Assembly: GCF_024502345.1 (NCBI RefSeq)
Contig: NZ_JALDNN010000001.1
Strand: one strand, 5' to 3'
Origin: Escherichia coli
GTDB taxonomy: Bacteria > Pseudomonadota > Gammaproteobacteria > Enterobacterales > Enterobacteriaceae
Length of the DNA stretch: 64,000 bases
A program made the translations under genes and the position numbers. The stretch's first letter is position 1; the number at the start of each line of letters is the position of its first letter. The notes below the pieces were generated by a model. It was not told the origin of the DNA, made no database searches, and was given only the letters and a program-made list of their open reading frames with translations. Below are positions 1,211 through 49,922 of the stretch, piece by piece.

Positions 1211-3451
1211 ATGAACAAGAAGATTCATTCCCTGGCCTTGTTGGTCAATCTGGGGATTTATGGGGTAGCGCAGGCACAAGAGCCGACCGATACTCCTGTT
1301 TCACATGACGATACTATTGTCGTTACCGCCGCCGAGCAGAACTTACAGGCGCCTGGCGTTTCGACCATCACCGCAGATGAAATCCGCAAAAACCCCGTTG
1401 CCCGCGATGTGTCGGAGATCATCCGTACCATGCCAGGCGTTAACCTGACCGGTAACTCCACCAGTGGTCAGCGTGGGAATAACCGACAGATTGATATTCG
1501 CGGTATGGGTCCGGAAAACACGCTGATTTTGATTGACGGCAAGCCGGTAAGCAGCCGTAACTCGGTGCGTCAGGGCTGGCGTGGCGAGCGCGATACCCGT
1601 GGTGATACCTCCTGGGTGCCACCTGAAATGATTGAACGTATTGAAGTTCTGCGTGGTCCGGCAGCTGCGCGTTATGGCAACGGCGCGGCGGGCGGCGTGG
1701 TTAACATCATTACCAAAAAAGGCAGCGGCGAGTGGCACGGCTCCTGGGACGCATATTTCAATGCGCCAGAACATAAAGAGGAAGGTGCCACCAAACGCAC
1801 TAACTTTAGCCTGACCGGTCCGCTGGGCGACGAATTCAGCTTCCGCTTGTATGGCAACCTCGACAAAACCCAGGCTGACGCGTGGGATATCAACCAGGGT
1901 CATCAGTCCGCGCGTGCCGGAACGTATGCCACGACGTTACCAGCCGGGCGCGAAGGGGTGATCAACAAAGATATTAATGGCGTGGTGCGCTGGGACTTCG
2001 CACCATTGCAATCGCTGGAACTGGAAGCGGGTTACAGCCGCCAGGGTAACCTGTATGCGGGCGATACCCAGAACACCAACTCTGACGCTTACACTCGCTC
2101 GAAATATGGCGATGAAACCAACCGTCTGTATCGCCAGAACTACTCGCTGACCTGGAACGGCGGCTGGGATAACGGCGTGACCACCAGCAACTGGGTGCAG
2201 TACGAACACACCCGTAACTCGCGTATTCCGGAAGGTCTGGCGGGCGGTACCGAAGGGAAATTTAACGAAAAAGCGACACAGGATTTCGTCGATATCGATC
2301 TTGATGACGTGATGCTGCACAGCGAAGTTAACCTGCCGATTGATTTCCTCGTTAACCAAACGCTGACGCTGGGTACGGAGTGGAATCAGCAACGGATGAA
2401 GGACTTAAGTTCCAACACCCAGGCACTGACCGGAACGAATACCGGTGGCGCTATTGATGGCGTGAGTGCCACCGATCGTAGCCCGTATTCAAAAGCAGAA
2501 ATTTTCTCGCTGTTTGCCGAAAACAACATGGAGCTGACTGACAGCACCATCGTAACGCCGGGGCTGCGTTTCGATCATCACAGTATTGTCGGCAATAACT
2601 GGAGCCCGGCGCTGAACATATCGCAAGGTTTAGGCGATGACTTCACGCTCAAAATGGGCATTGCCCGTGCTTATAAAGCGCCGAGCCTGTACCAGACTAA
2701 CCCTAACTATATCCTCTATAGTAAAGGCCAGGGCTGCTATGCCAGCGCGGGCGGCTGCTATCTGCAAGGTAACGATGACCTGAAAGCAGAAACCAGCATC
2801 AACAAGGAGATTGGTCTGGAGTTCAAACGCGACGGTTGGCTGGCGGGTGTGACCTGGTTCCGCAACGATTATCGCAATAAGATTGAAGCAGGCTATGTTG
2901 CTGTAGGGCAAAACGCAGTCGGCACCGATCTCTATCAGTGGGATAACGTGCCGAAAGCGGTGGTTGAAGGTCTGGAAGGATCGTTAAACGTACCGGTTAG
3001 CGAAACGGTGATGTGGACTAATAACATCACTTATATGCTGAAGAGTGAAAACAAAACCACGGGCGACCGTTTGTCGATCATCCCGGAGTATACGTTGAAC
3101 TCAACGCTGAGCTGGCAGGCACGAGAAGATTTGTCGATGCAAACGACCTTCACCTGGTACGGTAAGCAGCAGCCGAAGAAGTACAACTATAAAGGTCAGC
3201 CAGCGGTTGGACCGGAAACCAAAGAAATTAGTCCTTACAGCATTGTTGGGCTGAGCGCGACGTGGGATGTGACGAAGAATGTCAGTCTGACCGGCGGCGT
3301 GGACAATCTGTTCGACAAACGTTTGTGGCGTGCGGGTAATGCCCAGACCACGGGCGATTTGGCAGGGGCCAACTATATCGCCGGTGCCGGGGCGTATACC
3401 TATAACGAGCCGGGACGTACGTGGTATATGAGCGTAAACACTCACTTCTGA
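1211..3451 (+). CDS. fepA: Ferric enterobactin outer membrane receptor FepA (TonB-dependent)
   Basis: ORF 1151..3451; start set at MNKKIHSLALLVNLGIYGVAQA signal peptide (746 aa); TonB box and C-terminal F typical of TBDT. Confidence 0.95.
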   Translation: MNKKIHSLALLVNLGIYGVAQAQEPTDTPVSHDDTIVVTAAEQNLQAPGVSTITADEIRKNPVARDVSEIIRTMPGVNLTGNSTSGQRGNNRQIDIRGMGPENTLILIDGKPVSSRNSVRQGWRGERDTRGDTSWVPPEMIERIEVLRGPAAARYGNGAAGGVVNIITKKGSGEWHGSWDAYFNAPEHKEEGATKRTNFSLTGPLGDEFSFRLYGNLDKTQADAWDINQGHQSARAGTYATTLPAGREGVINKDINGVVRWDFAPLQSLELEAGYSRQGNLYAGDTQNTNSDAYTRSKYGDETNRLYRQNYSLTWNGGWDNGVTTSNWVQYEHTRNSRIPEGLAGGTEGKFNEKATQDFVDIDLDDVMLHSEVNLPIDFLVNQTLTLGTEWNQQRMKDLSSNTQALTGTNTGGAIDGVSATDRSPYSKAEIFSLFAENNMELTDSTIVTPGLRFDHHSIVGNNWSPALNISQGLGDDFTLKMGIARAYKAPSLYQTNPNYILYSKGQGCYASAGGCYLQGNDDLKAETSINKEIGLEFKRDGWLAGVTWFRNDYRNKIEAGYVAVGQNAVGTDLYQWDNVPKAVVEGLEGSLNVPVSETVMWTNNITYMLKSENKTTGDRLSIIPEYTLNSTLSWQAREDLSMQTTFTWYGKQQPKKYNYKGQPAVGPETKEISPYSIVGLSATWDVTKNVSLTGGVDNLFDKRLWRAGNAQTTGDLAGANYIAGAGAYTYNEPGRTWYMSVNTHF

Positions 3452-3487
3452 TGCTAACGTCAGATTGTTGACAAAGTGCGCGTCGTT

Positions 3488-3590
3488 CATGCCGGATGCG
3501 GCGTGAACGCCTTATCCGGCCTACAAAAATCTTGCCAATTCAATATATTGCAGGACCATGTAGGCCTGATAAGCGTAGCGCATCAGGCAG
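3488..3590. repeat. BIME (pair of inverted REP elements) between fepA and entD
   Basis: gccggatgcggcgtgaacgccttatccggcctac and gtaggcctgataagcgtagcgcatcaggc REP-type palindromes. Confidence 0.8.
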
Positions 3591-3616
3591 TTTTGCGTTT
3601 GTCATCAGTCTCGAAT

Positions 3617-4246
3617 ATGGTCGATATGAAAACTACGCATACCTCCCTCCCCTTTGCCGGACATACGCTGCATTTTGTTGAGTTCGATCCGGCGAATTTT
3701 TGTGAGCAGGATTTACTCTGGCTGCCGCACTACGCACAACTGCAACACGCTGGACGTAAACGTAAAACAGAGCATTTAGCCGGACGGATCGCTGCTGTTT
3801 ATGCCTTGCGGGAATATGGCTATAAATGTGTGCCCGCAATCGGCGAGCTACGCCAACCGGTGTGGCCTGCGGAGGTATACGGCAGTATTAGCCACTGCGG
3901 GGCTACGGCATTGGCCGTGGTTTCCCGTCAACCGATTGGCGTTGATATCGAAGAAATTTTTTCTGCGCAAACAGCGACCGAATTGACAGACAACATTATT
4001 ACACCAGCAGAACACGAGCGACTCGCAGACTGCGGTTTAGCCTTTTCTCTGGCGCTGACACTGGCATTTTCCGCCAAAGAGAGCGCATTTAAGGCAAGTG
4101 AGATCCAAACTGATGCAGGTTTTCTGGACTATCAGATAATTAGCTGGAATAAACAGCAGGTCATCATTCATCGTGAGAATGAGATGTTTGCTGTGCACTG
4201 GCAGATAAAAGAAAAAATAGTCATAACTCTGTGCCAACACGATTAA
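3617..4246 (+). CDS. entD: Enterobactin synthase phosphopantetheinyl transferase EntD
   Basis: ORF 3476..4246; MVDMKTTHTSLPFAGHTLHFVEF... ; upstream part of the ORF is REP sequence so start placed at 3617 (alternative 3626). Confidence 0.9.
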   Translation: MVDMKTTHTSLPFAGHTLHFVEFDPANFCEQDLLWLPHYAQLQHAGRKRKTEHLAGRIAAVYALREYGYKCVPAIGELRQPVWPAEVYGSISHCGATALAVVSRQPIGVDIEEIFSAQTATELTDNIITPAEHERLADCGLAFSLALTLAFSAKESAFKASEIQTDAGFLDYQIISWNKQQVIIHRENEMFAVHWQIKEKIVITLCQHD

Positions 4247-4260
4247 TTGACAACATCTGG

Positions 4261-4770
4261 TACGATTCGCCCGCAGCCATCACTGACTGCGGGCGAAAGT
4301 GTAAAGCAGGTGCCTTACCACTCTGACCTGACAACCGGATATGCGGGGATTGCTCCCCGCACAACGGCTACTTCTTCGGTTCGTAAGCGAGAACAGCCTT
4401 AAACTCAATATTACGTTCCTTTACGGTGAACTCACACAGCGAGTCTCCGACCAGAAGCGTAAATCCCAGCACCGTCAAACACAGCACTATGACTGCCACA
4501 AGGGCATATTTCGTCAGCATGTTTATATTGCCTCCATGCGAAGAAGGGACTACCATCCGAGTTGTTCAGGTTCGGAGTGGCAGCCCCAGGATTGATAGAA
4601 ATATCTCCTGGGGCTTCATCTTTCCAAACCTCAGAGTTAACCTGAAACCGGAAAGCTTCAGGCACCCGCCGTTATCTTACCCTTCCTTAGCAAAATAGCT
4701 GTTTATTTATACAGTGAATCCTGTTTCGGACTTCTGTCGGCAAAACTCATCATTGCTCTTAAAACGAAAC
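4261..4770 (-). other. Intact hok/sok-type type I toxin-antitoxin locus (copy A), tandem to the IS186-split copy
   Basis: ~510-bp unit with near-identical direct repeat starting again at 4772; contains hok ORF, overlapping upstream mok-like frame, and 3' region. Confidence 0.7.
4368..4520 (-). CDS. Hok-family membrane toxin (50 aa), copy A
   Basis: [50 protein letters not shown] within ORF 4368..4556. Confidence 0.85.
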
Positions 4771-4859
4771 CGCCCGCAGCCATCACTGACCGCGGGCGAA
4801 AGTGTAAAGCAGGTGCCTTACCATCCTGACCTGACAACCGGATATGCGGGGATTACTCC

Positions 4860-6198
4860 CATAAGCGCTAACTTAAGGGTTGAACCATCTGAAGAATGCG
4901 ACGCCTCGGTGCCTCGTTAAGACGATGCCTCGCGTTCTTCAATTGCGTTTTGTAGGCTGTCAGGGATACTGTCCCACGAATGGCCACCTGTAAGCTCCAG
5001 ATGACCATTTTTGTTATTCTCCACAACGAGTTAGTTCTTCTTTTCGGATCCGGCACTTCTGGGGGGGAAATCCAGCGATGGCTGGATTATGTCGTCAATT
5101 AAAAATGCGGCGAGTAGATTAGCAAATATCCACGCTTTCGCGAGTTCAGGTTCCTTTGCACGCAAAGCATCCAGGTGCAGCAAACTTTTGAGCCGCTTAA
5201 AAGCCAGTTCAATTTGCCATCGCAGACGGTAACAATCAGCCACTTGCTCTGCTGAATATTCATCTTCCGGTAATGATGTTAGCAATAGCACATGGCCCGC
5301 TGCTTCCAGCGTTTCCGCCTGAACTACTCGTCCTTTTCGACGATTCTCGCTGAGCAGTCGGGTTTTACTGATTAATGCTTTTTCGGGAGGAAGTGATACG
5401 GCAATGAGACGTGCCGGAAAGGGAGCTCCGGCTTTTTTATTACCTGAATTGCCTATCATTACAGTGGTTTCACCGTTCTTACCGCAATCCAGCCCGCGCA
5501 GAAAACCCATCATGTCAAAGCGCATTCCTTCTGCAGTTAACCAGCGCAATCCTCGCCAGTGAACCCGGACGATATAATCAGCTTCTCCAAAAGCAAGTGA
5601 GCGGATACATTCGGGACGCGAACCGAATCCCCGGTCAGCAATGCGTATCTCGTCTGCCGTTTGCGCAAATCGGTCCAGCCGTTCAGCGTCTCTGCTGTCG
5701 GTTAGCTCAAAATCAGTGAACTGACAGGTATGAGGATCATATCCCATATGTAGTCGCCATTCAGCGCTGCCGCCCCCGGGCGCACTGATTGCTGTTCCAT
5801 CGACAAGACGCAATCTCTTTCCGCTTGTACAACCCGTAACTGCGGCGCGCACAGCAAGTGTTTGTGCGGCAAGTATGCCAAACCAGTCGGCGGCATTCCG
5901 CAGCCGCTTCAGGAGAGCCACGTCAGATAATGTTGCAACGTCATGGAGCTGAGCCCATGCAGTGACTTCACGTAATGACATCCCCCCGGGGCCGTAAGCC
6001 AGCCCCAGACGTAGCAGAGTTGCAGCATCACGAATTTCGCGGCGGCGGGTTAGAGCCCCGGCATTACGTGCCGAAGTATCCAGTTCTTCGGGCTTACCAA
6101 TATGGGCCAGAATTGCTGACCAGTTATCGTGAGAGTAATTCATCGGCACGTTAAATCATATCAGGCGTAATACCACAACCCTTAAGTTAGCGCTTATG
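4860..6198 (-). mobile_element. IS186 insertion sequence
   Basis: Ends cataagcgctaacttaagggttg... and inverted copy at 6176-6198; 10-bp target duplication ggattactcc at 4850-4859 and 6199-6208; target reconstructs to GGGGATTACTCCCC (G4-N6-C4). Confidence 0.9.
5031..6143 (-). CDS. insL: IS186 transposase InsL
   Basis: ORF 5031..6149, MNYSHDNWSAILAHIGKPEELDTSARNAG... (IS4-family DDE transposase). Confidence 0.9.
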   Translation of the reverse strand: MNYSHDNWSAILAHIGKPEELDTSARNAGALTRRREIRDAATLLRLGLAYGPGGMSLREVTAWAQLHDVATLSDVALLKRLRNAADWFGILAAQTLAVRAAVTGCTSGKRLRLVDGTAISAPGGGSAEWRLHMGYDPHTCQFTDFELTDSRDAERLDRFAQTADEIRIADRGFGSRPECIRSLAFGEADYIVRVHWRGLRWLTAEGMRFDMMGFLRGLDCGKNGETTVMIGNSGNKKAGAPFPARLIAVSLPPEKALISKTRLLSENRRKGRVVQAETLEAAGHVLLLTSLPEDEYSAEQVADCYRLRWQIELAFKRLKSLLHLDALRAKEPELAKAWIFANLLAAFLIDDIIQPSLDFPPRSAGSEKKN

Positions 6199-6219
6199 GG
6201 ATTACTCCCCGCACAACGG

Positions 6220-6372
6220 CTACTTCTTCGGTTCGTAAGCGAGAACAGCCCTGAACTCAATATTACGTTCCTTCACCGTAAACTCACACAGCGAGTCTCC
6301 GACCAGAAGCGTAAATCCCAGTACCGTCAAACACAGCACTATGACTGCCACAAGGGCATATTTCGTCAGCAT
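6220..6372 (-). CDS. hokE: Hok-family membrane toxin HokE (copy B, locus split by IS186 21 bp downstream of the stop)
   Basis: [50 protein letters not shown]; one aa difference (K/R) from copy A. Confidence 0.85.
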
Positions 6373-6812
6373 GTTTATATTGCCTCCATGCGAAGAAGGA
6401 ACTACCATCCAAATTGTCTGGTTTGGAGTGGCAGCCCCAGGGTTGATAGAAATATCTCCTGGGGCTTCATCTTTCCAGACCTCAGAGTAAACCTGAAACC
6501 GGAAAGCTTCAGGCACCCGCCGTTATCTTACCCTTCCTCAACAAAATAGCTGTTTATTTATACAGTAAATCCTGTTTCGGACTTCTCACTCCTCATTTAA
6601 TCAACTGAAGCTGAGCCCGTTTTTTCTGCATGCCTCAATCGTCAAAATTCTTCGCCACCAGCCAGCCGTGCCATAACTTGTCACATTGCAAAAGTAGCCA
6701 AATTGCTTCAGGCACCATCAGTTCACCATCACCAAAAAAAGAAACATTCCAGAACTTCCGCATCTCGCCCAGCCGCTCCGACTTCTATACTGAATAGAAA
6801 ACGCCAACATAA

Positions 6813-9434: not shown

Positions 9435-9493
9435 TTCTCCTGACAGCCGGGCCCCCATCCCGGCTCAGATTGCTGACAAAGTGCGCTTTGTTT

Positions 9494-9582
9494 ATGCCGG
9501 ATGCGGCGTGACCGCCTTATCCTGCCTACAAGTTCGTGCCAATTCATTCAGGTAGGCATGATAAGCGTAGCGCATCAGGCAA
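9494..9582. repeat. BIME (REP pair) between nfsB and ybdG
   Basis: gccggatgcggcgtgaccgccttatcctgcctac and gtaggcatgataagcgtagcgcatcaggc; flanking sequence similar to the fepA-entD BIME. Confidence 0.8.
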
Positions 9583-9643
9583 TTTTGTATTTGCCATCAG
9601 CCCTCGCAGGAAATCCCCCCTCAGATTCTCCTGATTTGCATAA

Positions 9644-17211: not shown

Positions 17212-17234
17212 TTATTCTCTCCTGGAGTTAAAAG

Positions 17235-18617
17235 TTATTGCTGCCAACCGCCACCAAGTGCGGTATATAAAGAAATTTCGTTAACCTGACGGGCATAATT
17301 CAGGTTAAGTAAAGTTTGTCGGGTTGCAAATAACGAACGCTCGGCATCCAGCACTTCCAGATAACTTACTGCTCCGTGCTGATATAATGCCCGCGCCCGT
17401 TGCAAAGTAATTTGCAGCGATGCCAGATAACGCTGCTGGGCGCTAATTTGATCGTTCAGGCTTTGACGTAATGCCAGCGCATCTGCCACTTCTTTAAAGG
17501 CGTTCTGGATTTTCTGTTCATAATTCACCACCGACTGCTGCTGGCGAATTTCGGCGATATCCAGATTGACCTGGTTGCGTCCGGCATTAAAAATGGGGAT
17601 CTCAATTTTAGGAATAAAATTCCACATCCCGCTGCTGGCGTTAAATAATGACGACAGATCGCTGCTGGCGGTTGATATTCCGCTGGTCAGGCTTATAGAT
17701 GGGAAAAATGCCGCGCGTGCAGCGCCAATATTGGCATTAGCCGCCATTAACGCGTGTTCAGCTTCCATAATATCCGGGCGCTGCAATAAGATTTGCGACG
17801 ACAAGCCCGCCGGTAATTTAACGCTTTGCAGACTGCCGCCGTTTACTGTCTGCGCTTGCGGCAGCTTGCCGTAGCTTCCCAATAACAGTTGCAATGCATT
17901 ATTCGCCTGCGCCAGTTCCCCCTGACGTTTAGCGATGTCGCTGCGGGTACTTTCAATCACCCCGCGAGCCTGTTCCAGCGCCAGAACATTACTGCTACCT
18001 GTCAACAGTTGTTTTTCGACAAACGCATATGACTGCTGATAATTACGCAGCGTTTCTTCGGCTATTTGCAATTGCGCATACGCCAGCTGCTGATTGAAAT
18101 AGCTTTGCGCGACATTAGAAACCAGCAGAATATGCACCGCGCGCTGAGCTTCCTCAGTGGCTAAATAATTTTGTCGCTCGGCTTCGCTCATGTTCTTTAA
18201 GCGCCCGAAAAAATCGAGGTCAAAGCTGGCGTTAAGGCCAGTAGAAAACTCCCGCGTCGTGGCTGAATCGCCTTTAAGATTGCCGCTCCAGCTGCCGCTG
18301 CCCTCACCATTGAGCTGTGGGTAGCGGTCGGCATCAGTCAGACGATATTGCGCCCGTGCCTCCTGCACTTTCAGCGTCTCCATGCGCAAATCCCGGTTAT
18401 TCTCCAGCGCCTCGCTAATCAGCGTCTTCACCTGATTATCAACAAAAAAGGTGCGCCAGCCCGCGTTCTGATAGTTATCTGCTGCGTTAACGAGGCCGTT
18501 CTGGCTGAGTGAGAACTGCTGAGGAACGGGCATTGCCGGACGCTGATAATCCGGTGCCAGTGAACAACCGGTTAGCGCAAGGGCCACACAAAATGGCAGA
18601 AGTTTACAAGGAGACAT
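17235..18617 (-). CDS. cusC: Cu(I)/Ag(I) efflux outer membrane factor CusC (lipoprotein)
   Basis: MSPCKLLPFCVALALTGCSLAPDYQRP... lipobox LTGC. Confidence 0.95.
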   Translation of the reverse strand: MSPCKLLPFCVALALTGCSLAPDYQRPAMPVPQQFSLSQNGLVNAADNYQNAGWRTFFVDNQVKTLISEALENNRDLRMETLKVQEARAQYRLTDADRYPQLNGEGSGSWSGNLKGDSATTREFSTGLNASFDLDFFGRLKNMSEAERQNYLATEEAQRAVHILLVSNVAQSYFNQQLAYAQLQIAEETLRNYQQSYAFVEKQLLTGSSNVLALEQARGVIESTRSDIAKRQGELAQANNALQLLLGSYGKLPQAQTVNGGSLQSVKLPAGLSSQILLQRPDIMEAEHALMAANANIGAARAAFFPSISLTSGISTASSDLSSLFNASSGMWNFIPKIEIPIFNAGRNQVNLDIAEIRQQQSVVNYEQKIQNAFKEVADALALRQSLNDQISAQQRYLASLQITLQRARALYQHGAVSYLEVLDAERSLFATRQTLLNLNYARQVNEISLYTALGGGWQQ

Positions 18618-20889: not shown

Positions 20890-21113
20890 TCCTTCAGCAA
20901 ACGGCAACTTTTATAACCAGTGTAAAAATAACGTGCCGCAATAGTCATACCTATTAATGGTAAAAAGCTGTCACAATTCATAAAAAACCTTAATATACGC
21001 CACCCTAAACATAACCAGCGTTAATGTAAGGTTTTTGTGTGGACTGGCTTCTTGATGTTTTTGCTACCTAGCTCTATGGCTTAAAAGTAATCGCGATAAC
21101 GTTAGCGGTCATC

Positions 21114-28581: not shown

Positions 28582-28832
28582 ATGCGGGCGAAACTTCTGG
28601 GAATAGTTCTGACAACCCCTATTGCGATCAGCTCTTTTGCTTCTACCGAGACTATATCGTTTACTCCTGACAACATAAATGCGGACATTAGTCTTGGAAC
28701 TCTGAGCGGAAAAACAAAAGAGCGCGTTTATCTAGCTGAAGAAGGAGGCCGAAAAGTCAGTCAACTCGACTGGAAATTCAATAACGCTGCAATTATTAAA
28801 GGTGCAATTAATTGGGATTTGATGCCCCAGAT
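28582..28832 (+). pseudogene. ompT: ompT 5' fragment (outer membrane protease VII), truncated after ~83 codons by IS903-like element
   Basis: MRAKLLGIVLTTPIAISSFASTETISFTPDNINADISLGTLSGKTKERVYLAEEGGRKVSQLDWKFNNAAIIKGAINWDLMPQ then IS inverted repeat at 28833. Confidence 0.85.
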
Positions 28833-29889
28833 GGCTTTGTTGAATAAATCGAACTTTTGCTGAGTTGAAGGATCAGATCACGTATCTTCCCGACAACGCA
28901 GACCGTTCCGTGGCAAAGCAAAAGTTCAAAATCACCAACTGGCCCACCTACAATAAAGCCCTCATCAACCGTGGCTCCATAACTTTCTGGCTGGATGATG
29001 AAGCTATTCAGGCCTGGTATGAGTCAGCAACACCTTCTTCACGAGGCAGACCTCAGCGCTATTCTGACCTTGCCATCACGACTGTGCTGGTCATTAAACG
29101 CGTATTCAGGCTGACCCTGCGCGCTGCGCAGGGCTTTATTGATTCCATTTTTTCTCTGATGAACGTTCCGCTACGCTGCCCGGATTACAGCTGTGTCAGC
29201 AGGCGGGCAAAGTCGGTTAATGTCAGTTTCAAAACGCCCACCCGGGGTGAAATCGCACACCTGGTAATTGATTCCACCGGGCTGAAGGTCTTCGGTGAAG
29301 GCGAGTGGAAAGTCAAAAAGCATGGCCAGGAACGCCGCCGTATCTGGCGTAAGCTGCATCTCGCCGTTGACAGTAAAACACATGAAATCATCTGCGCTGA
29401 CCTGTCGCTGAACAACGTTACGGACTCAGAGGCCTTCCCCGGGTTAATCCGGCAAACCCACCGGAAAATCAGGTCAGCCGCCGCCGATGGCGCTTACGAT
29501 ACCCGGCTATGTCACGATGAACTGCGGCGTAAGAAAATCAGCGCGCTTATCCCTCCCCGAAAAGGTGCGGGTTACTGGCCCGGTGAATATGCAGACCGTA
29601 ACCGTGCAGTGGCTAATCAGCGAATGACCGGGAGTAATGCGCGGTGGAAATGGACAACAGATTACAACCGTCGCTCGATAGCGGAAACGGCGATGTACCG
29701 GGTAAAACAGCTGTTCGGGGGTTCACTGACACTGCGTGACTACGATGGTCAGGTTGCAGAGGCTATGGCCCTGGTACGAGCGCTGAACAAAATGACGAAA
29801 GCAGGTATGCCTGAAAGCGTGCGTATTGCCTGAAAACACAACCCGCTACGGGGGAGACTTACCCGAAATCTGATTTATTCAACAAAGCC
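28833..29889 (+). mobile_element. IS903-like insertion sequence (IS5 family), copy 1, no target-site duplication
   Basis: 1057 bp; terminal inverted repeats ggctttgttgaataaatcg / cgatttattcaacaaagcc; flanks gccccagat vs tcgctgaaa differ. Confidence 0.85.
28865..29833 (+). CDS. IS903-family transposase
   Basis: 322-aa ORF ...[39 protein letters not shown]...; identical to the copy at 56939..57907. Confidence 0.85.
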
Positions 29890-30078
29890 TCGCTGAAAGT
29901 GGAATGTATCCATGGAGAACACTTTATCAGCCGGGAAATAATGCGGGCAACGGTGTTTAATTATATCGAATGTGATTACAATCGGTGGCGGCGGCACAGT
30001 TGGTGTGGCGGCCTCAGTCCGGAACAATTTGAAAACCAGAACCTCGCTTAGGCCTGTGTCCATATTACGTGGGTAGGA
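29890..30078 (+). mobile_element. IS3 right-end remnant (3' end of orfB plus terminal inverted repeat)
   Basis: Encodes [53 protein letters not shown]; ends ...cctgtgtccatattacgtgggtaggatca. Confidence 0.75.
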
Positions 30079-30331
30079 TCACACCTTCTTCCACACTTTC
30101 TGGAACATTTAGGTAACAACCATCTGGATATTGGTGTTGGAACTGGGTTTTACCTTACTCACGTACCTGAGAGTAGTCTGATATCTTTAATGGATTTGAA
30201 CGAAGCTAGCCTGAACGCGGCATCTACAAGGGCTGGGGAATCAAAAATTAAACATAAAATTAACCATTGATGTAGCCCCCTGAAACACCGGACAGTAGCT
30301 GTATCTCCAGATAAGAGATAGGCTTGAATAT

Positions 30332-30727
30332 ATGTCTAACACTAACGCCAATTTTGAGATGACCGGGATCCTGTTAGGGCAAGAAGTCCGTAAACGTAAA
30401 ACTCCTCAGGAGAAGATCGCCATTATCCAGCAGACGATGGAGCCGGGTATGAATGTCTCCCATGTCGCCCGCCTGCATGGTATCCAGCCCAGCCTGCTGT
30501 TTAAGTGGAAGAAGCAATATCAGGAAGGCAGCCTCACCGCCGTTGCGGCTGGAGAGGAAGTCGTTCCTGCTTCTGAGCTTACTGCTGCTCTGAAGCAGGT
30601 CCGGGAGCTTCAGCGCCTTCTGGGCAAGAAAACGATGGAAGTTGAGATCCTGAAAGAAGCCGTGGAGTACGGTCAGTCGCGAAAATGGATAGCGCACGCG
30701 CCCTTGTTGCCAAAGGACGGGGAATAG
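30332..30727 (+). CDS. IS3-family transposase OrfA (HTH)
   Basis: 131 aa, ...[60 protein letters not shown]... similar to IS2 InsC. Confidence 0.8.
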
Positions 30728-31566
30728 CCATGGTCAGCCGGACCATGGGCGTGTCGCGTGCGCAACTGTCACTGCGGATTAACCGTTCTGCCGACTGGCA
30801 GGACAGGCGCTGTAACCGGCGTAATGAAGAAGCAGACGCAGAAATACTGTCGGCTATCCTCAACATTATCAGCGATATGCCGAGTTATGGTTATCGACGC
30901 GTGTGGGGCATCCTGCGCAAGCAACGTCGCACAGAGGGACAGCCACCTGTGAATGCCAAACGGCTTTACAGGATAATGAGCGAGCATAACCTGTTGTTGT
31001 TGCATCACAAACCAGAGCGACCGAAGCGTGAACATAAGGGCAAGATAGCGGTGGCAGAAAGCGATATGCGCTGGTGTTCAGATGGCTTCGAGTTCGGCTG
31101 CGACAACGGCGAAAAACTGCGGGTAACGTTCGCGCTGGACTGCTGCGACCGTGAGGCCATAGACTGGGCAGCAAGCACGGGAGGCTATGACAGTTCGACC
31201 GTGCAGGATGTGATGCTGAGGTCGGTGGAAAAGCGCTTCGGCGACAGGTTGCCCGACACAGCGGTGCAGTGGCTGACGGATAACGGTTCAGCGTATACCG
31301 CGTATGAAACGCGGAGGTTCGCGAGAGAGCTGAATCTGGAGCCCTGCACAACAGCGGTGAGCAGCCCGCAGAGTAATGGCATGGCCGAACGGTTCGTGAA
31401 AACGATGAAAGAAGACTATATCGCGTTCATGCCAAAACCGGATGTGAGAACAGCACTGCGAAACCTTGCAGTAGCGTTCACGCATTACAATGAAAACCAC
31501 CCGCACAGCGCGCTGGGATATCACTCCCCGAGGGAATACCGGCGGCAGCGGACATCGTTAACTTAA
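30685..31566 (+). CDS. IS3-family transposase OrfB (DDE catalytic domain)
   Basis: 293 aa overlapping orfA in another frame; ...[17 protein letters not shown]... Confidence 0.8.
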
Positions 31567-31615
31567 GATACAAAAGCTGTTCGGAGATGGAGGGTCAAGA
31601 TCACATAAAATTAAC

Positions 31616-31972
31616 CATGATGTTTTTGAACCTTATCCCGCGGCGTTACATGGTCAATTTGATTCCATTTCCATGTTTTACCTTCTTCACTGCCTGCCTG
31701 GAAATATATCTACAAAAAGCTGTGTAATACGCAATGCGGCGCAGGCCTTAACTGACGATGGAACTCTATACGGAGCCACAATTCTTGGCGATGGAGTTGT
31801 GCACAATAGCTTCGGTCAAAAACTGATGCGCATTTACAATCAGAAAGGCATCTTTTCAAACACAAAAGATTCCGAAGAAGGCTTAACACATATACTCTCA
31901 GAGCATTTCGAGAATGTTAAAACCAAGGTTCAAGGTACTGTAGTAATGTTTTCCGCTTCAGGGAAAAAATAG
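31616..31972 (+). CDS. Hypothetical protein, apparently 5'-truncated gene remnant
   Basis: Open frame begins immediately after the IS2-like flank with no start until 31673; followed by hairpin terminator at ~31980-32017. Confidence 0.3.
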   Translation, partial: HDVFEPYPAALHGQFDSISMFYLLHCLPGNISTKSCVIRNAAQALTDDGTLYGATILGDGVVHNSFGQKLMRIYNQKGIFSNTKDSEEGLTHILSEHFENVKTKVQGTVVMFSASGKK

Positions 31973-32281
31973 CATCCAACCGCAGCACGTTCTTGCATAA
32001 GGCGTGTCTGCGGTTTTTCAACTATTCAGATACATCACTCCCATCACATTCATTCCTCCGCATCATAGGCATATAGGCTATATCACCTTGATATTTTTCT
32101 TCTTCAGATAAAAACTGTTATCTATGTATACTTTTAAACCCAATCCGTGTAGAGTCTCTGCATAAGATAGTTTGCAGTTGCCACTTCAGCTTGCGCCATA
32201 AACCGCCTGATTTTTGCCGCCACCTGGGTGATGCTGCCAACTTACTGATTTAGTGTATGATGGTGTTTTTGAGGTGCTCCA

Positions 32282-32557
32282 GTGGCTTCTGTTTCTATCA
32301 GCTGTCCCTCCTGTTCAGCTACTGACGGGGTGGTGCGTAACGGCAAAAGCACCGCCGGACATCAGCGCTATCTCTGCTCTCACTGCCGTAAAACATGGCA
32401 ACTGCAGTTCACTTACACCGCTTCTCAACCCGGTACGCACCAGAAAATCATTGATATGGCCATGAATGGCGTTGGATGCCGGGCAACCGCCCGCATTATG
32501 GGCGTTGGCCTCAACACGATTTTCCGCCATTTAAAAAACTCAGGCCGCAGTCGGTAA
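32282..32557 (+). CDS. insA: IS1 InsA
   Basis: 91 aa [43 protein letters not shown]... Confidence 0.9.
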
Positions 32558-32979
32558 CCTCGCGCATACAGCCGGGCAGTGACGTCATCGTCTGCGCGGA
32601 AATGGACGAACAGTGGGGATACGTCGGGGCTAAATCGCGCCAGCGCTGGCTGTTTTACGCGTATGACAGGCTCCGGAAGACGGTTGTTGCGCACGTATTC
32701 GGTGAACGCACTATGGCGACGCTGGGGCGTCTTATGAGCCTGCTGTCACCCTTTGACGTGGTGATATGGATGACGGATGGCTGGCCGCTGTATGAATCCC
32801 GCCTGAAGGGAAAGCTGCACGTAATCAGCAAGCGATATACGCAGCGAATTGAGCGGCATAACCTGAATCTGAGGCAGCACCTGGCACGGCTGGGACGGAA
32901 GTCGCTGTCGTTCTCAAAATCGGTGGAGCTGCATGACAAAGTCATCGGGCATTATCTGAACATAAAACACTATCAATAA
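32476..32979 (+). CDS. insB: IS1 InsB (expressed as InsAB' by frameshift)
   Basis: 167-aa ORF in -1 frame relative to insA. Confidence 0.85.
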
Positions 32980-33439
32980 GTTGGAGTCATTACCTAAGTC
33001 AGGTATAAATATAAGTGACATTGCCCAAGAATTCAAAACCTCGCGGCAAACCATTTTAAGAGCTAAAGCAAAAAATCAGACACCTGATATATAAAAATAA
33101 TCTCGGTGTGAGATTCCTTACGTTTTCCAAGCCCCCCTTCCTAGCCTTAAATGGAAAGATACTTCTAATTATAGAATTTATATATCTTACCCTACGGTAG
33201 GGCTGGCCATTCAATATCCGGTGCAGTTGATGTATCAACACGGTTCAGCAACACCCGATACTTTTTCCAGGCTTCCAGCAACAAGGTTTCTTCCTCCGTT
33301 GCGATCTCCAGATCCACAGCATCCTGAAGCGGCGCTATATGCTCACTGGCTACCTGCATCAGGCTGTTTTTTGTTTCTTCCGCCTACCTGTAATACTGAT
33401 TGCGAGTTGAATGGTTTGATTTGTCATTATCAATTCCTA

Positions 33440-33500
33440 TTGGTATTGCAATGAATGAATAATAGCAATGCGTATTAATCCAAGCAATAGCAAAACGTGT
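33440..33500. promoter_or_regulatory. Putative operator/promoter region upstream of prophage repressor (OR-like)
   Basis: Palindrome attgcaat plus repeated aatagcaa motifs; tataaa -10-like hexamer 10 nt before the repressor ATG. Confidence 0.4.
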
Positions 33501-33537
33501 TTTGACCATCAATACGCAAGCGTATAAATTAAAACTT

Positions 33538-44953: not shown

Positions 44954-45847
44954 CTACAGCGAAATACAGGTCCCCGCTTCGCCCGCCAGCGTCTCTTCAA
45001 TTCGCGATAACGCCCCAATCCACGCGGGTTTACCACGGCTTCTGACATAACCACTCACCGCCGTTACCTTCGGCCCCATCGAACCATCGGCTTTGGCAAA
45101 TGGCGCTAACTCATCCGGTGTGGTATGGCGAATGGCACGTTGCTGCGGCGTTCCCCAGTTTTCATATACCGCATCAGCATCGGTGAGGATCACCAGTCCA
45201 TCGGCATTAATCTGCTCGGCGAGCAACGCAGCGGCGAGATCTTTATCAATCACTGCTTCACTCCCTGCTCCGTCATCCGTCACAGGCACACCGCCGCCGC
45301 CACTGCAAATTACCACATGCCCCTCTTTGAGCAACAACTCGATGGCTTCGCTGTCGAGAATTTTACGCGGTTGCGGAGACGCCACCACCCGGCGTAAATA
45401 TTTACCATCACGTTTCATCTGCCAGCCGTAAGCCGCTTCCAGTGTCTCTTGTTCTTCTGGCTGATAAACCGGACCGATAAACTTCTCTGGCTGCAAAAAC
45501 GCCGGATCATCAGGCGAAACTTCAATGCGCGTCAGCACCGTCGTGACAGGCGGCATCTGCGGCTGTGCGCTCAAACTCTGCGCCAGCATATAGCCAATCA
45601 TCCCCTGACTTTCCGCTACCAGCACATCCAGCGGATACGGTTCTACCTCTTTCCACGCCAGATTCTGTAATGCCAGCAGCCCCACCTGCGGCCCGTTGCC
45701 GTGAACAATCGCCAGCCGATAAGAACGGGCCAGGCGCGCCAGCGCGGGCACAGCACTGGCAATATTGCGATATTGATTTTCTGCCGTCAGCGCCTCACCG
45801 CGCTGGAGTAAGGCGTTGCCCCCAAGAGCCACAACCAGTGTTTTCAT
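44954..45847 (-). CDS. arcC: Carbamate kinase-like protein (ArcC/YbcF)
   Basis: 297-aa [35 protein letters not shown]... Confidence 0.88.
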
Positions 45848-46659
45848 GGTTTTCCTTGTAATAATTGTTGGCCAAGCCAGAACCCCAGCAGCGTATCTGC
45901 CCCTGACGTATGCCCCAGCGCCAGCAGCGAATCAATCGCAACAGCGGTACGTTTCGGGCAACTCAGAGCATGAACAAAGTGCAGGAGTGGCGAGGCGAAA
46001 TATCCTTGCGCGGCATAACGTAAATAACTGACGCTCACCGCTGTGGTAACGAGTTGCAGATTGTCGGAACAGGCAAAAAACGGGCGACCGGCGCGCGCAT
46101 CTAAAGCGCCATAATACCAGGCCGCCAGCAGCATTCCGCTCAACGTGTCATCATGACTTGGCGTTAATCCGGGGCCTTTACCCAGCCAGTGCCGCCAGTC
46201 GGTCTTAACGCCATTGAGCGCGGCCTGAAAACAGTGACGAAACTGGCGTAATTCAGCGGGCAGCGGATCGCTTGCCGCCATCGCCAGTGGCCCGAAAAGT
46301 CCGGTTTCCTCCGCGCGTTGCATCCATGCAGCTGCAAGCGGTTGAGGATGCGAAGGCGGCGTAATACGCAGCAAACAATAACGCTGTGGCTGTTTAACCG
46401 TAAAACGCCCGAGGCGAATCCCTTGAGCCACAACCTGTGGTCGTTCATTGCCGCATAATCCACCGCATAACGCATCGAATTGCGCGCGGCGAAGCACCCA
46501 TCCTCCGGGGCCGAAACCACTACCCTGACGATGCAGCGTTAACAGTTCGCCGCTTTCCGTCATCAGGTTAATCGCCCGCCGCCACACTCCCGCTAACCGC
46601 CAGGACTGGCGATAATTCGGTGCGCTACTGCTGGCAAGCAGAGGATGGATGATCGTCAT
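45844..46659 (-). CDS. ylbF: Uncharacterised protein YlbF (DUF2877 family)
   Basis: Start at [16 protein letters not shown] within ORF 45844..46752. Confidence 0.8.
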
Positions 46660-46669
46660 TGCGCGTTCC

Positions 46670-47929
46670 TCAACCAATCCCCATGCTTTCAGCCAGTGCT
46701 TCCAGCGCCTGTTCAAAACACGCCAGCGGTGCCCGCACAGTGCCTGCGCCAATCTGCCCGATCCCCGCCTCTTTATGGGCGATACCGGTATTGATGAGTG
46801 GCGTAATGCCGGTTTCTACCACGCGACGAATATCCAGCCCCAGGCACGCGCCCTGAAAATCCCAGCCTGGGATCTGCAACTGCATATTGCGTTCAAGGTA
46901 AATTTCCGCCATCTCTTCAGATACCGCCCTGGCCGCTTCCATGCCACCCGCACCGACAAAGCGCGTTACGCCAGGCGCTGCGATCATTGCCGCACCTCCG
47001 ATACCAAAGGTTTCGGTAATCGCGCTATCGCCCATATCCGGGTTCGCCTGCTCCTGCGAGAAGCCGGTGAAAAACAGACCTTGCGGAGTGTTTACAGGCG
47101 CAGTAAACCAGCGTTCACCCAGCCCGCTTCCCCGAATCCCGAACATATTGCCGTTGCGGGTCATAGCCGTAACGATGCTGCCTGCGCGGATCATCGCGCC
47201 AGCATCCATCGCCGCCTTGCAGTAAGCCATCGCAAGGTTGAGGAAGAACTGATCGGTCACGCTGAGGAAATCCATCACTTCCGCGATGTGCTGTTTATCA
47301 TGATCGAGGCGAGCAATTTGTGGGGCCAGCGCACGCATTAACAGTGCTGAGGAAGCAATATTGCGTTGATGGAACTCATCGCCCATGGTAATGCCCTGCG
47401 CCATCATCGCCGTGAGATCGATACCGTGCTCCATGCGCCCCAGCGCCGCGCTTAATACTGGCATTAACACATCGCGCATCCAGCGATGGCGAGTCAGGAC
47501 ATCTTCGTCGTAAGCGCCAAAACGCATCACTTTGCCGATACCTTCGTTGAGGTTGCAGTACGCCCGGTTGCCGTCGGTCACGTTCTCGACCACCAGCATC
47601 GGCATACTGGCAGAAGTAATACCGCCCATTGGCCCGACGGCATTCACATGGTGACAAGGAATGAAGTTCACTTCCCCCTGCTCCAGCATCGCCAGTGCCT
47701 GCGCTTCATCTTTCGCCCAGCCTTCGAACAGACATGCGCCCACGCACGCCCCTTTCATGGGTCCGGTCATCTCCTGCCAGCGCATTGGCGGCCCGGCGTG
47801 AAGCAGTGTTTTGCCCTCGTTTAGTTCGCTGATAAGTGAAGACGCCGGTTGCACATCCAGCCAGTGTGGACGAGCACGACGAATTTGTTCGATAACCGCA
47901 GCATTGGCTTGCGCCACTGATGTAAACAT
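46670..47929 (-). CDS. ylbE: DUF1116 protein YlbE, intact reading frame
   Basis: Uninterrupted 419-aa [35 protein letters not shown]... Confidence 0.85.
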
Positions 47930-47938
47930 GGGAACCCC

Positions 47939-49606
47939 TTATTGCAAACGTTCTAATAAACGAGCCAGTTTTTTATTGCCGCCGGCGACTGGCGACCATT
48001 GGTAATGCACAACCGGTTTGCTGGCGCTTTGTAGCTCCAGCGCAAAGCTGCGTAATCCGATGTTAATCACGGCGACGTTTTCCAGTAATGACGGTGTGTG
48101 TTGCTGTGCGGCAGGCGAGAGCGGATGAATTAACGCTGCCGCCAGCAAGGTGGCTTCCAGTAGCGAACTCACGACCGCAATCCCCGCATCTTCCAGCGTG
48201 GCGATTTGCTGCGAGCGGCATTGCGGGTCACGTTCAGTGCCTGTCACCGTGGCAATGGCATACAGTGGTTGATTGTCTGAACGCGCAGCACAGGCTTTTT
48301 GCCAGGCGCTTACCAGCGAGGCGGCAGGATCGGCGGTCGCACCGAAGCCAATCACGACATCAAGCAGCAGCACACGCACTTGCGGTTTAGCGCCGAGATC
48401 GGTAATTAACTGGTTGCGTAAGGTTGGGTCGATCATCGGATGGGGACGCCCGACGGTGTAGAAATCATCGCCGAGGTCAATAATCTGGTGGCCATCGGCG
48501 TCGAGCATCATGCCGTGATGATGGGCATCATCGGCTTCCACGCCAAGGTGTCCGGCAAGTAATCCCGCCGCTTCGGCAGCCAGCGTACCGCCGGTATACA
48601 AACCGCAAATAAATCCGCTGCTGGCAGGCGTTATCGCGTTACGTCGCGCCGTAACGCGTGAAAGCAGGCAAGCCAGGCGTGCGGCCTCATCCAGCGAGGA
48701 GGCAAACCAGACATTCTCGTCGCGGGCCACCGCCGGGGTATAACCTAAAAACAGCGCCACCGTCGGTTTGCCGGTTGCTTTCATGGCATTAACAATTTTC
48801 AGACGCACAGCTTCGGCAGGCGGTTTTGAAACAAATGCCAGCACTTCGCTTTTCTCGTCTGCACTGAGCATTTCCAGCGCCGTCAGCGCACTGATGCCGC
48901 CCACTTCACGGCTGAGGTCGCGCCCGCCAAGGCCAATCGCGTGAGTAATTCCCTCCCCTGCCAGCGCAATCTGTGAGCACAGCTCCTGAATCCCGGTACC
49001 GGAAGCGCCAATGACGCCAATGTTGCCTTCCGGCATCACGTTAGCAAAAGCCAGCGGCGTGGCGGCAATCATCGATGTACCGCAGTCCGGCCCCATCACC
49101 AGCAAGCCTTTTTCCCGCGCGCGGGTTTTGAGTTGGATTTCATCTTCCAGCGTGACGTTATCGGAGAACATCATCACGTTGAGGTTGCGATCCAGCGCCT
49201 GATTCGCCAGCTCCGCCGCATACTCGCCAGCCACTGAAATCAGCGCCAGATTGGCATCGGATAATTTCTGACAGGCACTGTCCCAGCGACGCACCTGCGT
49301 CAACGCCTGGCTGCTGCCTGACCCCTGCGCCAGTTGTTTTAGCGCCTCTTCAAGCTGCTGCATAATCGCCAGCGCGATCCCCGCATCCGCCGCTTCGCTA
49401 CGAATTGCCACGCAAATATCGTTCGGCGTGGCGTTATTAAAATCGTCATGCCAGAAACCTGTGGTATCTAATAACGCTTTATTGGCGGGCGTACCCATCA
49501 TTACGGAAACATCATCAACATTTTCTGATTCGCTGAGTTTTCGTGAAATAATCATTAAACTGACCGAATCCTGAAAACACCCTTTTTTAATAAAGGCGTG
49601 GATCAT
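47939..49606 (-). CDS. fdrA: FdrA (acyl-CoA synthetase NAD(P)-binding-like protein)
   Basis: 555-aa ORF MIHAFIKKGCFQDSVSLMIISRKLSESENVDD... Confidence 0.88.
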   Translation of the reverse strand: MIHAFIKKGCFQDSVSLMIISRKLSESENVDDVSVMMGTPANKALLDTTGFWHDDFNNATPNDICVAIRSEAADAGIALAIMQQLEEALKQLAQGSGSSQALTQVRRWDSACQKLSDANLALISVAGEYAAELANQALDRNLNVMMFSDNVTLEDEIQLKTRAREKGLLVMGPDCGTSMIAATPLAFANVMPEGNIGVIGASGTGIQELCSQIALAGEGITHAIGLGGRDLSREVGGISALTALEMLSADEKSEVLAFVSKPPAEAVRLKIVNAMKATGKPTVALFLGYTPAVARDENVWFASSLDEAARLACLLSRVTARRNAITPASSGFICGLYTGGTLAAEAAGLLAGHLGVEADDAHHHGMMLDADGHQIIDLGDDFYTVGRPHPMIDPTLRNQLITDLGAKPQVRVLLLDVVIGFGATADPAASLVSAWQKACAARSDNQPLYAIATVTGTERDPQCRSQQIATLEDAGIAVVSSLLEATLLAAALIHPLSPAAQQHTPSLLENVAVINIGLRSFALELQSASKPVVHYQWSPVAGGNKKLARLLERLQ

Positions 49607-49922
49607 AACAACTCCTTAAAAATTGCACCCATGGCAATTGCACGAGCAGTGTTAATGTGGCGATTACGGTATCGATGACAACGGGTAAATAAGGTGATGA
49701 ATATCACACAGGGATTATTAACAAAAGAATTCAAATAACCGCCATGCTATTACGTGTTATTTTTTAATAAGCGTGGTTGTTTTAAAAACCAGGTTAAAAG
49801 CGAGCGGATTATCAAATAAATTCTAACTATATTTTTTTGCCTGTCTGGATCACATAATCCAGATATTTTCCCTGTATGTTAATTGCAGTCATGCTTCACA
49901 CCGTCGTTAAAAAGGAAGACAG

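Follow-up and report, generated by a model that had tools for sequence, protein, structure and literature searches.

The interval 46,670..47,929 (minus strand) of the window, by which we mean the whole 64,000-nucleotide stretch of Escherichia coli DNA that was analysed, is very probably the ordinary chromosomal ylbE gene, now named allG, in an intact state that is ancestral and nearly universal in E. coli, MG1655 included. The frameshift that has been ascribed to MG1655 at this locus belongs to an old reference sequence and is no trait of that strain, and ylbE is therefore unsuitable as a lineage marker. There is nothing new in the intact allG, as the gene is already known. The main value of the analysis is a correction: the lesion persists in the W3110 record of 2006 and in a few assemblies that share its coordinates.

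Reading frame and identity of allG

The original prediction described ylbE as an uninterrupted reading frame of 419 codons, and the ORF listing gives the same frame at the same coordinates, running from ATG to stop over 419 amino acids plus stop with no interruption. The chance of 419 stop-free codons is (61/64)^419, or ~2e-9 per start, so the length of this minus-strand ORF is far above chance. The encoded protein matches Pfam PF06545 (AllG; Oxamate carbamoyltransferase subunit AllG) with E = 1.8e-96 and a score of 322.2 bits against a gathering cut-off of 27, and the match covers profile positions 1-215 of 215. When aligned to ylbE of MG1655, both genes measure 1260 nt and are separated by 24 substitutions and no indels. 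Read in the minus-strand frame, 19 of these changes are synonymous (dN/dS = 0.077), leaving 414 of 419 residues identical (98.8%) and five amino-acid changes. This synonymous bias and the low dN/dS indicate that the minus strand carries the coding frame, which is under purifying selection.

Plus-strand ORFs of 230, 112 and 94 amino acids also lie within the allG interval, and the overlap of the 230-residue ORF could be taken to mean that the minus-strand frame is fortuitous or antisense, the true gene lying on the opposite strand. We regard the probability of this as close to nil, since it is the minus-strand frame that yields a Pfam match at 1e-96, a homolog of solved structure and 583 family representatives, and in which synonymous changes make up 19 of the 24 substitutions. 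Judging from the sequence, the three plus-strand ORFs are antisense by-products of allG. Database labels for AllG lag behind: in RefSeq (PGAP, MG1655 record) and NCBIfam the protein is called 'DUF1116' or 'YlbE family', or is left without a model, and NCBIfam holds no model for either YlbE or YlbF.

The frameshift in legacy K-12 records

According to the original prediction, the MG1655 reference carries a frameshift that splits ylbE, and an intact frame would hence mark a host outside the MG1655 lineage. The frameshift itself is real as far as legacy records are concerned (W3110, CIT, LIM and CAR); it is absent from the current MG1655 sequences. In NC_000913.3, ylbE (b4572, YP_009029994.1) is annotated as an intact CDS of 1260 nt and bears no pseudogene flag, and the gene is likewise intact in the independent MG1655 assembly CP032667.1. 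In the W3110 record NC_007779.1, which dates from 2006, ylbE is 1259 nt long (positions 2582-3840 of the retrieved locus) and is flagged 'frameshifted'. Compared with NC_000913.3, the W3110 copy has A for G at nt 114 and a run of four G (G4) for a run of five (G5) at nt 252-256; A114 is silent, and the G4 run shifts the frame into a stop at codon 87. At both sites the window agrees with NC_000913.3. Gene nt 114 (47,816, minus strand) is G where legacy W3110 has A, and the run at gene nt 252-256 (47,674..47,678, minus strand) is G5, as against G4 in the legacy K-12 records. The signature of the legacy frameshifted allele (A114, G4) is thus absent from the window, which has G114 and G5.

Passages in three papers (PMC4759930, PMC4404585, PMC3045373) describe the old MG1655 reference as differing from real stocks at ylbE by a SNP and a 1-nt indel, the stocks being ylbE+. 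The A114 and G4 of W3110 are exactly the two differences that these passages report. Our account of the history of the lesion draws on the W3110 record and on such passages in papers citing Freddolino et al. 2012; a literature search for papers pairing ylbE with U00096.3 returned none. To survey the spread of the lesion, all complete E. coli genomes were searched with a 241-nt segment of the lesion version. Of the 5,426 complete genomes at least 5,411 contain the ylbE region, and the lesion version was found identical in four of ~5,417 matching records, namely W3110, CIT, LIM and CAR. In the last three, the lesion segment lies at the coordinates of the W3110 record (with an offset of 1 nt in LIM). 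In CIT, with a chromosome of 4,639,673 bp, ylbE likewise bears the annotation 'frameshifted', and NZ_CP026028.1 holds the legacy lesion version of ylbE at positions 1422-2680 of the locus. Given the matching coordinates, we infer that CIT, LIM and CAR are probably reference-guided assemblies built on the old sequence.

The G5 version is found in MG1655 re-assemblies as well as in C600, DH5alpha, J53, ME8067 and BW25113. In a spread sample of 40 complete genomes, ylbE aligns over exactly 1260 nt in 39. The fortieth, AR_0085 (NZ_CP029741.1, 2774-4439 of the locus), has a deletion by which the 3'-terminal 444 nt of ylbE are fused to a 5' portion of fdrA, and both genes are annotated there as partial pseudogenes; this is a rare but genuine loss.

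Could an intact ylbE nonetheless be diagnostic of a non-MG1655 host, on the grounds that MG1655 is frameshifted? The legacy K-12 records (W3110 NC_007779.1, CIT) do show a frameshifted gene, and the literature passages cited above do report that the old MG1655 reference and the stocks disagree by one SNP and one 1-nt indel. Both NC_000913.3 and CP032667.1 have an intact 1260-nt ylbE, however, K-12 derivatives such as C600, DH5alpha, J53 and BW25113 carry G5, and the lesion is limited to the four records, so that we consider the idea very improbable. Since an intact ylbE is near-universal, with MG1655 among its carriers, it holds no strain information, and its use as a non-MG1655 marker has to be abandoned.

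Host background

That the host is not MG1655 is correct, on grounds of which ylbE is no part: an identity of ~98.3% over ~54 kb together with differences in IS elements, sfm and prophage content. The window aligns collinearly, in inverted orientation, with MG1655 533,252-613,704, showing ~902 mismatches in ~54 kb aligned (98.3%). It comes from a non-K-12 E. coli that is ~1.7-2% diverged from MG1655. With membership of the K-12 lineage taken as >99.9% identity and the indel structure of NC_000913.3, the window falls outside that lineage, and an exact match of the whole window to an MG1655-derived genome, named beforehand as the result that would speak against a different background, was not obtained (98.3% against MG1655).

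Whether ylbE or 22-24-kb pieces of the window are compared, no complete RefSeq E. coli genome comes closer than ~98.8% identity, the best lying at 98.4-98.8%. Closer relatives were found through an exact-protein look-up of the window YlbE, which led to draft and metagenome contigs. Draft and gut-metagenome contigs with an identical YlbE are 99.9-99.99% identical to the window over 18.5 kb. The closest relative, LLYC01, is E. coli ccpm3961, a commensal of a healthy child whose phylogenetic position was given as 'between groups B1 and E' (PMC7133007). This would seem to be a commensal lineage that is not represented among the complete genomes. Shigella was also considered, in view of the number of IS elements, the broken ompT and the lost sfm operon, and was set aside, as the exact proteins bear the label E. 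coli at NCBI and the relatives have contigs of 200-340 kb.

The structural differences that the original prediction had listed beside ylbE were all recovered. Its IS903-like copies are two IS903B elements, identical to each other (100%), mutually inverted and 27 kb apart. One of them interrupts allB and is discussed below. The second (28,833-29,889), inverted with respect to the allB copy, truncates ompT after nt 251 (region 28,582-29,889), and as it has no target duplication an adjacent deletion or rearrangement is implied. Two inverted identical IS903B copies could mediate an inversion. For the allB copy, an IS903B-mediated inversion was considered and ruled out: allB sequence is present on both sides of the element and the target duplication is intact.

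The sfm operon is missing, as had been predicted. MG1655 557,880-563,805, between fimZ/sfmF' and folD, is replaced by IS1. This IS1 copy (37,666-38,433), standing in place of the 5.9-kb operon, is identical to another at 32,227-32,994, and both are without target duplication. As to sfm in the related draft contigs, several end at the IS1 boundary and others keep the operon. The prophage content at argU differs as well, most of DLP12 having been replaced by a degraded remnant (29,890-36,748) beside the tRNA-Arg(UCU) gene, which forms its edge (36,672-36,748). Within this remnant lie an IS3 end fragment (29,890-30,085), an IS2-like element (about 30,274-31,603), ybcY/tfa fragments, an S24-peptidase-type repressor-like ORF (33,502-34,230), a DicB/FtsZ-inhibitor-like ORF (35,498-35,788) and the last 235 nt of intD (36,422-36,656). 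The extra hok unit, finally, is a second copy of hokE/sokE with the entD-proximal spacer; the two copies (4346-4735 and 6198-6586) are 95% identical. An IS186 that is 99.9% identical to the K-12 IS186B lies between them (4346-6586 region), whereas K-12 has the IS186-adjacent hokE/sokE copy only.

Several smaller differences from K-12 were observed elsewhere in the window. Codon 11 of nfrB (21,069-21,071) is changed from TGG to TAG, a nonsense mutation (W11*) in a gene whose remainder is 99.3% identical to K-12. Between nfsB and ybdG (9440-9619) there is a palindromic, REP-like insert of ~150 bp relative to K-12. A 120-bp element that K-12 has between cusC and cusF is missing (17,212-17,244), and the stop codon of cusC is changed from TGA to TGG, which adds three residues.

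The allFGHK operon and its function

In the window, allG is the second gene of a four-gene operon on the minus strand, allF-allG-allH-allK, formerly named fdrA-ylbE-ylbF-ybcF. The first gene, allF (47,939..49,606), is intact and encodes 555 amino acids with CoA_binding and Ligase_CoA domains; allG itself (46,670..47,929) encodes the AllG (DUF1116) protein. It is followed by an intact allH (45,844..46,659; 271 amino acids; Pfam PF11392 AllH) and an intact allK (44,954..45,847; 297 amino acids; Pfam AA_kinase), the catabolic carbamate kinase (PMC9843812). The junction between allF and allG measures 9 nt, the allG stop and the allH start are 10 nt apart, allH and allK overlap by 4 nt (ATGA), and Shine-Dalgarno-like sequences are present at the junctions. 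These features point to a translationally coupled allFGHK operon. The operon genes together with allE, allC and allD are all intact, collinear with MG1655 and in the K-12 order, allD-allC-allE lying upstream of the operon and divergent from it.

AllF, AllG and AllH of K-12 together form the oxamic transcarbamylase, which catalyses oxalurate + phosphate <-> oxamate + carbamoyl phosphate (Kim et al. 2024, PMC11326118). Deletion of allG in K-12 abolishes oxamate production, and the purified AllF-AllG-AllH is active (PMC11326118). AllK converts carbamoyl phosphate and ADP to ATP (PMC9843812). By analogy with these K-12 experiments, the window AllG would have the same enzymatic role. AllFGH would split oxalurate with phosphate in the final branch of anaerobic allantoin breakdown to yield nitrogen and ATP, and AllK would then draw ATP from carbamoyl phosphate and ADP.

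The operon is activated by AllS and ArcA from the allD-allF intergenic region (PMC12535856). In the window this region, with the allF promoter, spans 316 bp (49,607..49,922, minus strand) and differs from MG1655 by 10 substitutions, all from -195 to -78 and inside the published AllS and ArcA binding fragments (PMC12535856). Nine of the ten window bases recur in O157:H7 and all ten in strain AHM8C212RI, making K-12 the outlier. We set the cluster aside as ordinary polymorphism common to O157:H7 and other strains.

Disruption of allB and lineage changes in AllG and AllF

The gene for allantoinase, allB (55,678-58,105), is interrupted by the other IS903B copy. The element (56,883..57,939; 1057 bp) sits at about codons 53-55 and cuts the gene into 55,678-56,882 and 57,940-58,105. 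It is flanked by a perfect 9-bp target duplication, CCATGCCCG, at 56,874-56,882 and 57,940-57,948, and is bounded by GGCTTTGTTGAATAAATC terminal inverted repeats. Over its 1057 bp it is 100% identical to annotated IS903B copies (IS5 family, IS903 group), and its transposase scores 357 bits with NCBIfam NF033579 (cut-off 140). Downstream of IS903B, a 399-residue ORF starting from Met55 of allB is left; an exact-protein look-up of the truncated AllB product found no such protein on record. The closest draft relatives (99.9-99.99% identical) lack the insertion, and no genome among the 5,426 complete ones of E. coli contains the allB-IS903B junction, which argues for a recent event private to this strain.

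The pathway opens with the AllB reaction, from allantoin to allantoate (PMC11326118). By that assignment, the split of allB should block this step and starve AllFGHK of its substrate. In view of the allB disruption the operon may have nothing to work on, and hence the word 'intact' is no proof of 'in use'. The insertion is also probably polar on the downstream ybbY and glxK.

Two residues in the oxamic transcarbamylase subunits deserve attention in this respect. Among the five differences between the window AllG and that of K-12, D141 and G267 are lineage-specific; at position 141, Asp is more frequent in the family than any other residue. At position 267 (codon GGA, 47,129..47,131, minus strand) the window has Gly, and in 64 of 64 diverse full-length homologs the column holds V (51), L (8), I (4) or M (1), and never Gly. 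The residue lies inside the conserved motif N-G-x-x-F-G-I-R-V-S-G-L-G and is the final one of a beta-strand (262-267) in the AlphaFold2 model. V267G was present in every relative checked, including ones that are ~0.6% diverged and have a complete allantoin cluster, and must therefore be at least tolerated. In AllF, the change Q79L is due to an A at window position 49,371 that occurs in the window only; every relative checked has T, and MG1655 has Gln at this residue. The window AllF allele is WP_256632813.1 (MCQ7031496.1), labelled E. coli and known from one contig only.

These observations raise the question of whether allG could be an open-frame relic, in which the pathway has newly been switched off, V267G with or without Q79L may weaken the enzyme, and the time for decay has been too short for the frame to break. 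Such a reading would fit the position of AllB at the first pathway step, the split of allB with its perfect target duplication, the lack of the insertion in near-identical relatives and in all complete genomes, and the full identity of the two IS903B copies, which indicates a recent event. It would also fit a Gly in an AllG column that is otherwise V, L, I or M, and the AllF Q79L private to the window. V267G, however, is shared with relatives that keep a complete allantoin cluster and has thus been tolerated or neutral for some time, the dN/dS of allG is low overall (0.077), and a single private substitution such as Q79L is no evidence of relaxed selection. We consider a relic unlikely and prefer to see the interval as an ordinary intact allG. 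A related suggestion, that the lineage may carry a naturally weakened oxamic transcarbamylase (through V267G in the most conserved motif of the AllG family) and that this strain may have newly lost anaerobic use of allantoin (through IS903B in allB and AllF Q79L), is rather improbable. If it were true, we would be looking at an early stage in the loss of a pathway whose final enzyme became known only in 2024. In any case, the combination of an allB knockout with AllG V267G is mildly useful and of local interest only.

Comparison with known AllG proteins

A search of the whole protein library gave 583 representatives of the AllG family at E <= 1e-30. The invariant residues W274, G300, G309 and G311, as well as the nearly invariant columns, are kept in the window AllG, and Gly stands at position 267, which is aliphatic in all 64 homologs. 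The AlphaFold2 model of the protein has a pLDDT of 97.4, and its sole structural match is PDB 3CLQ (TM-score 0.96, rmsd 1.0 A, 46% identity over 413 columns), which suggests that the fold is specific to the AllG family. PDB 3CLQ, the one relative of solved structure, is a conserved protein of unknown function from a Gram-positive bacterium, Enterococcus faecalis V583, and its counterpart of residue 267 is Val.

Many members of the family are proteins of ~950-1100 amino acids in which CoA_binding and Ligase_CoA domains, as in AllF, are followed by AllG (for example P0003, P0009, P0010 and P0015). In P0015 we also observed an additional C-terminal cupin domain. The AllG part of the fusions P0003, P0009 and P0015 is 36-58% identical to the window protein over the whole AllG part. 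The fusions form one polypeptide, whereas in E. coli allF and allG are separate genes lying 9 nt apart; that AllF and AllG are naturally fused elsewhere supports the view that the two make up a physical unit.

The closest known counterpart is YlbE/AllG of K-12 (b4572, formerly b0519; UniProt P77129). Both proteins have 419 amino acids and the AllG domain, and both genes occupy the same position in an allF-allG-allH-allK operon beside allECD. The window protein differs from that of K-12 by M81, D141, H168, G267 and G355 (window residues).
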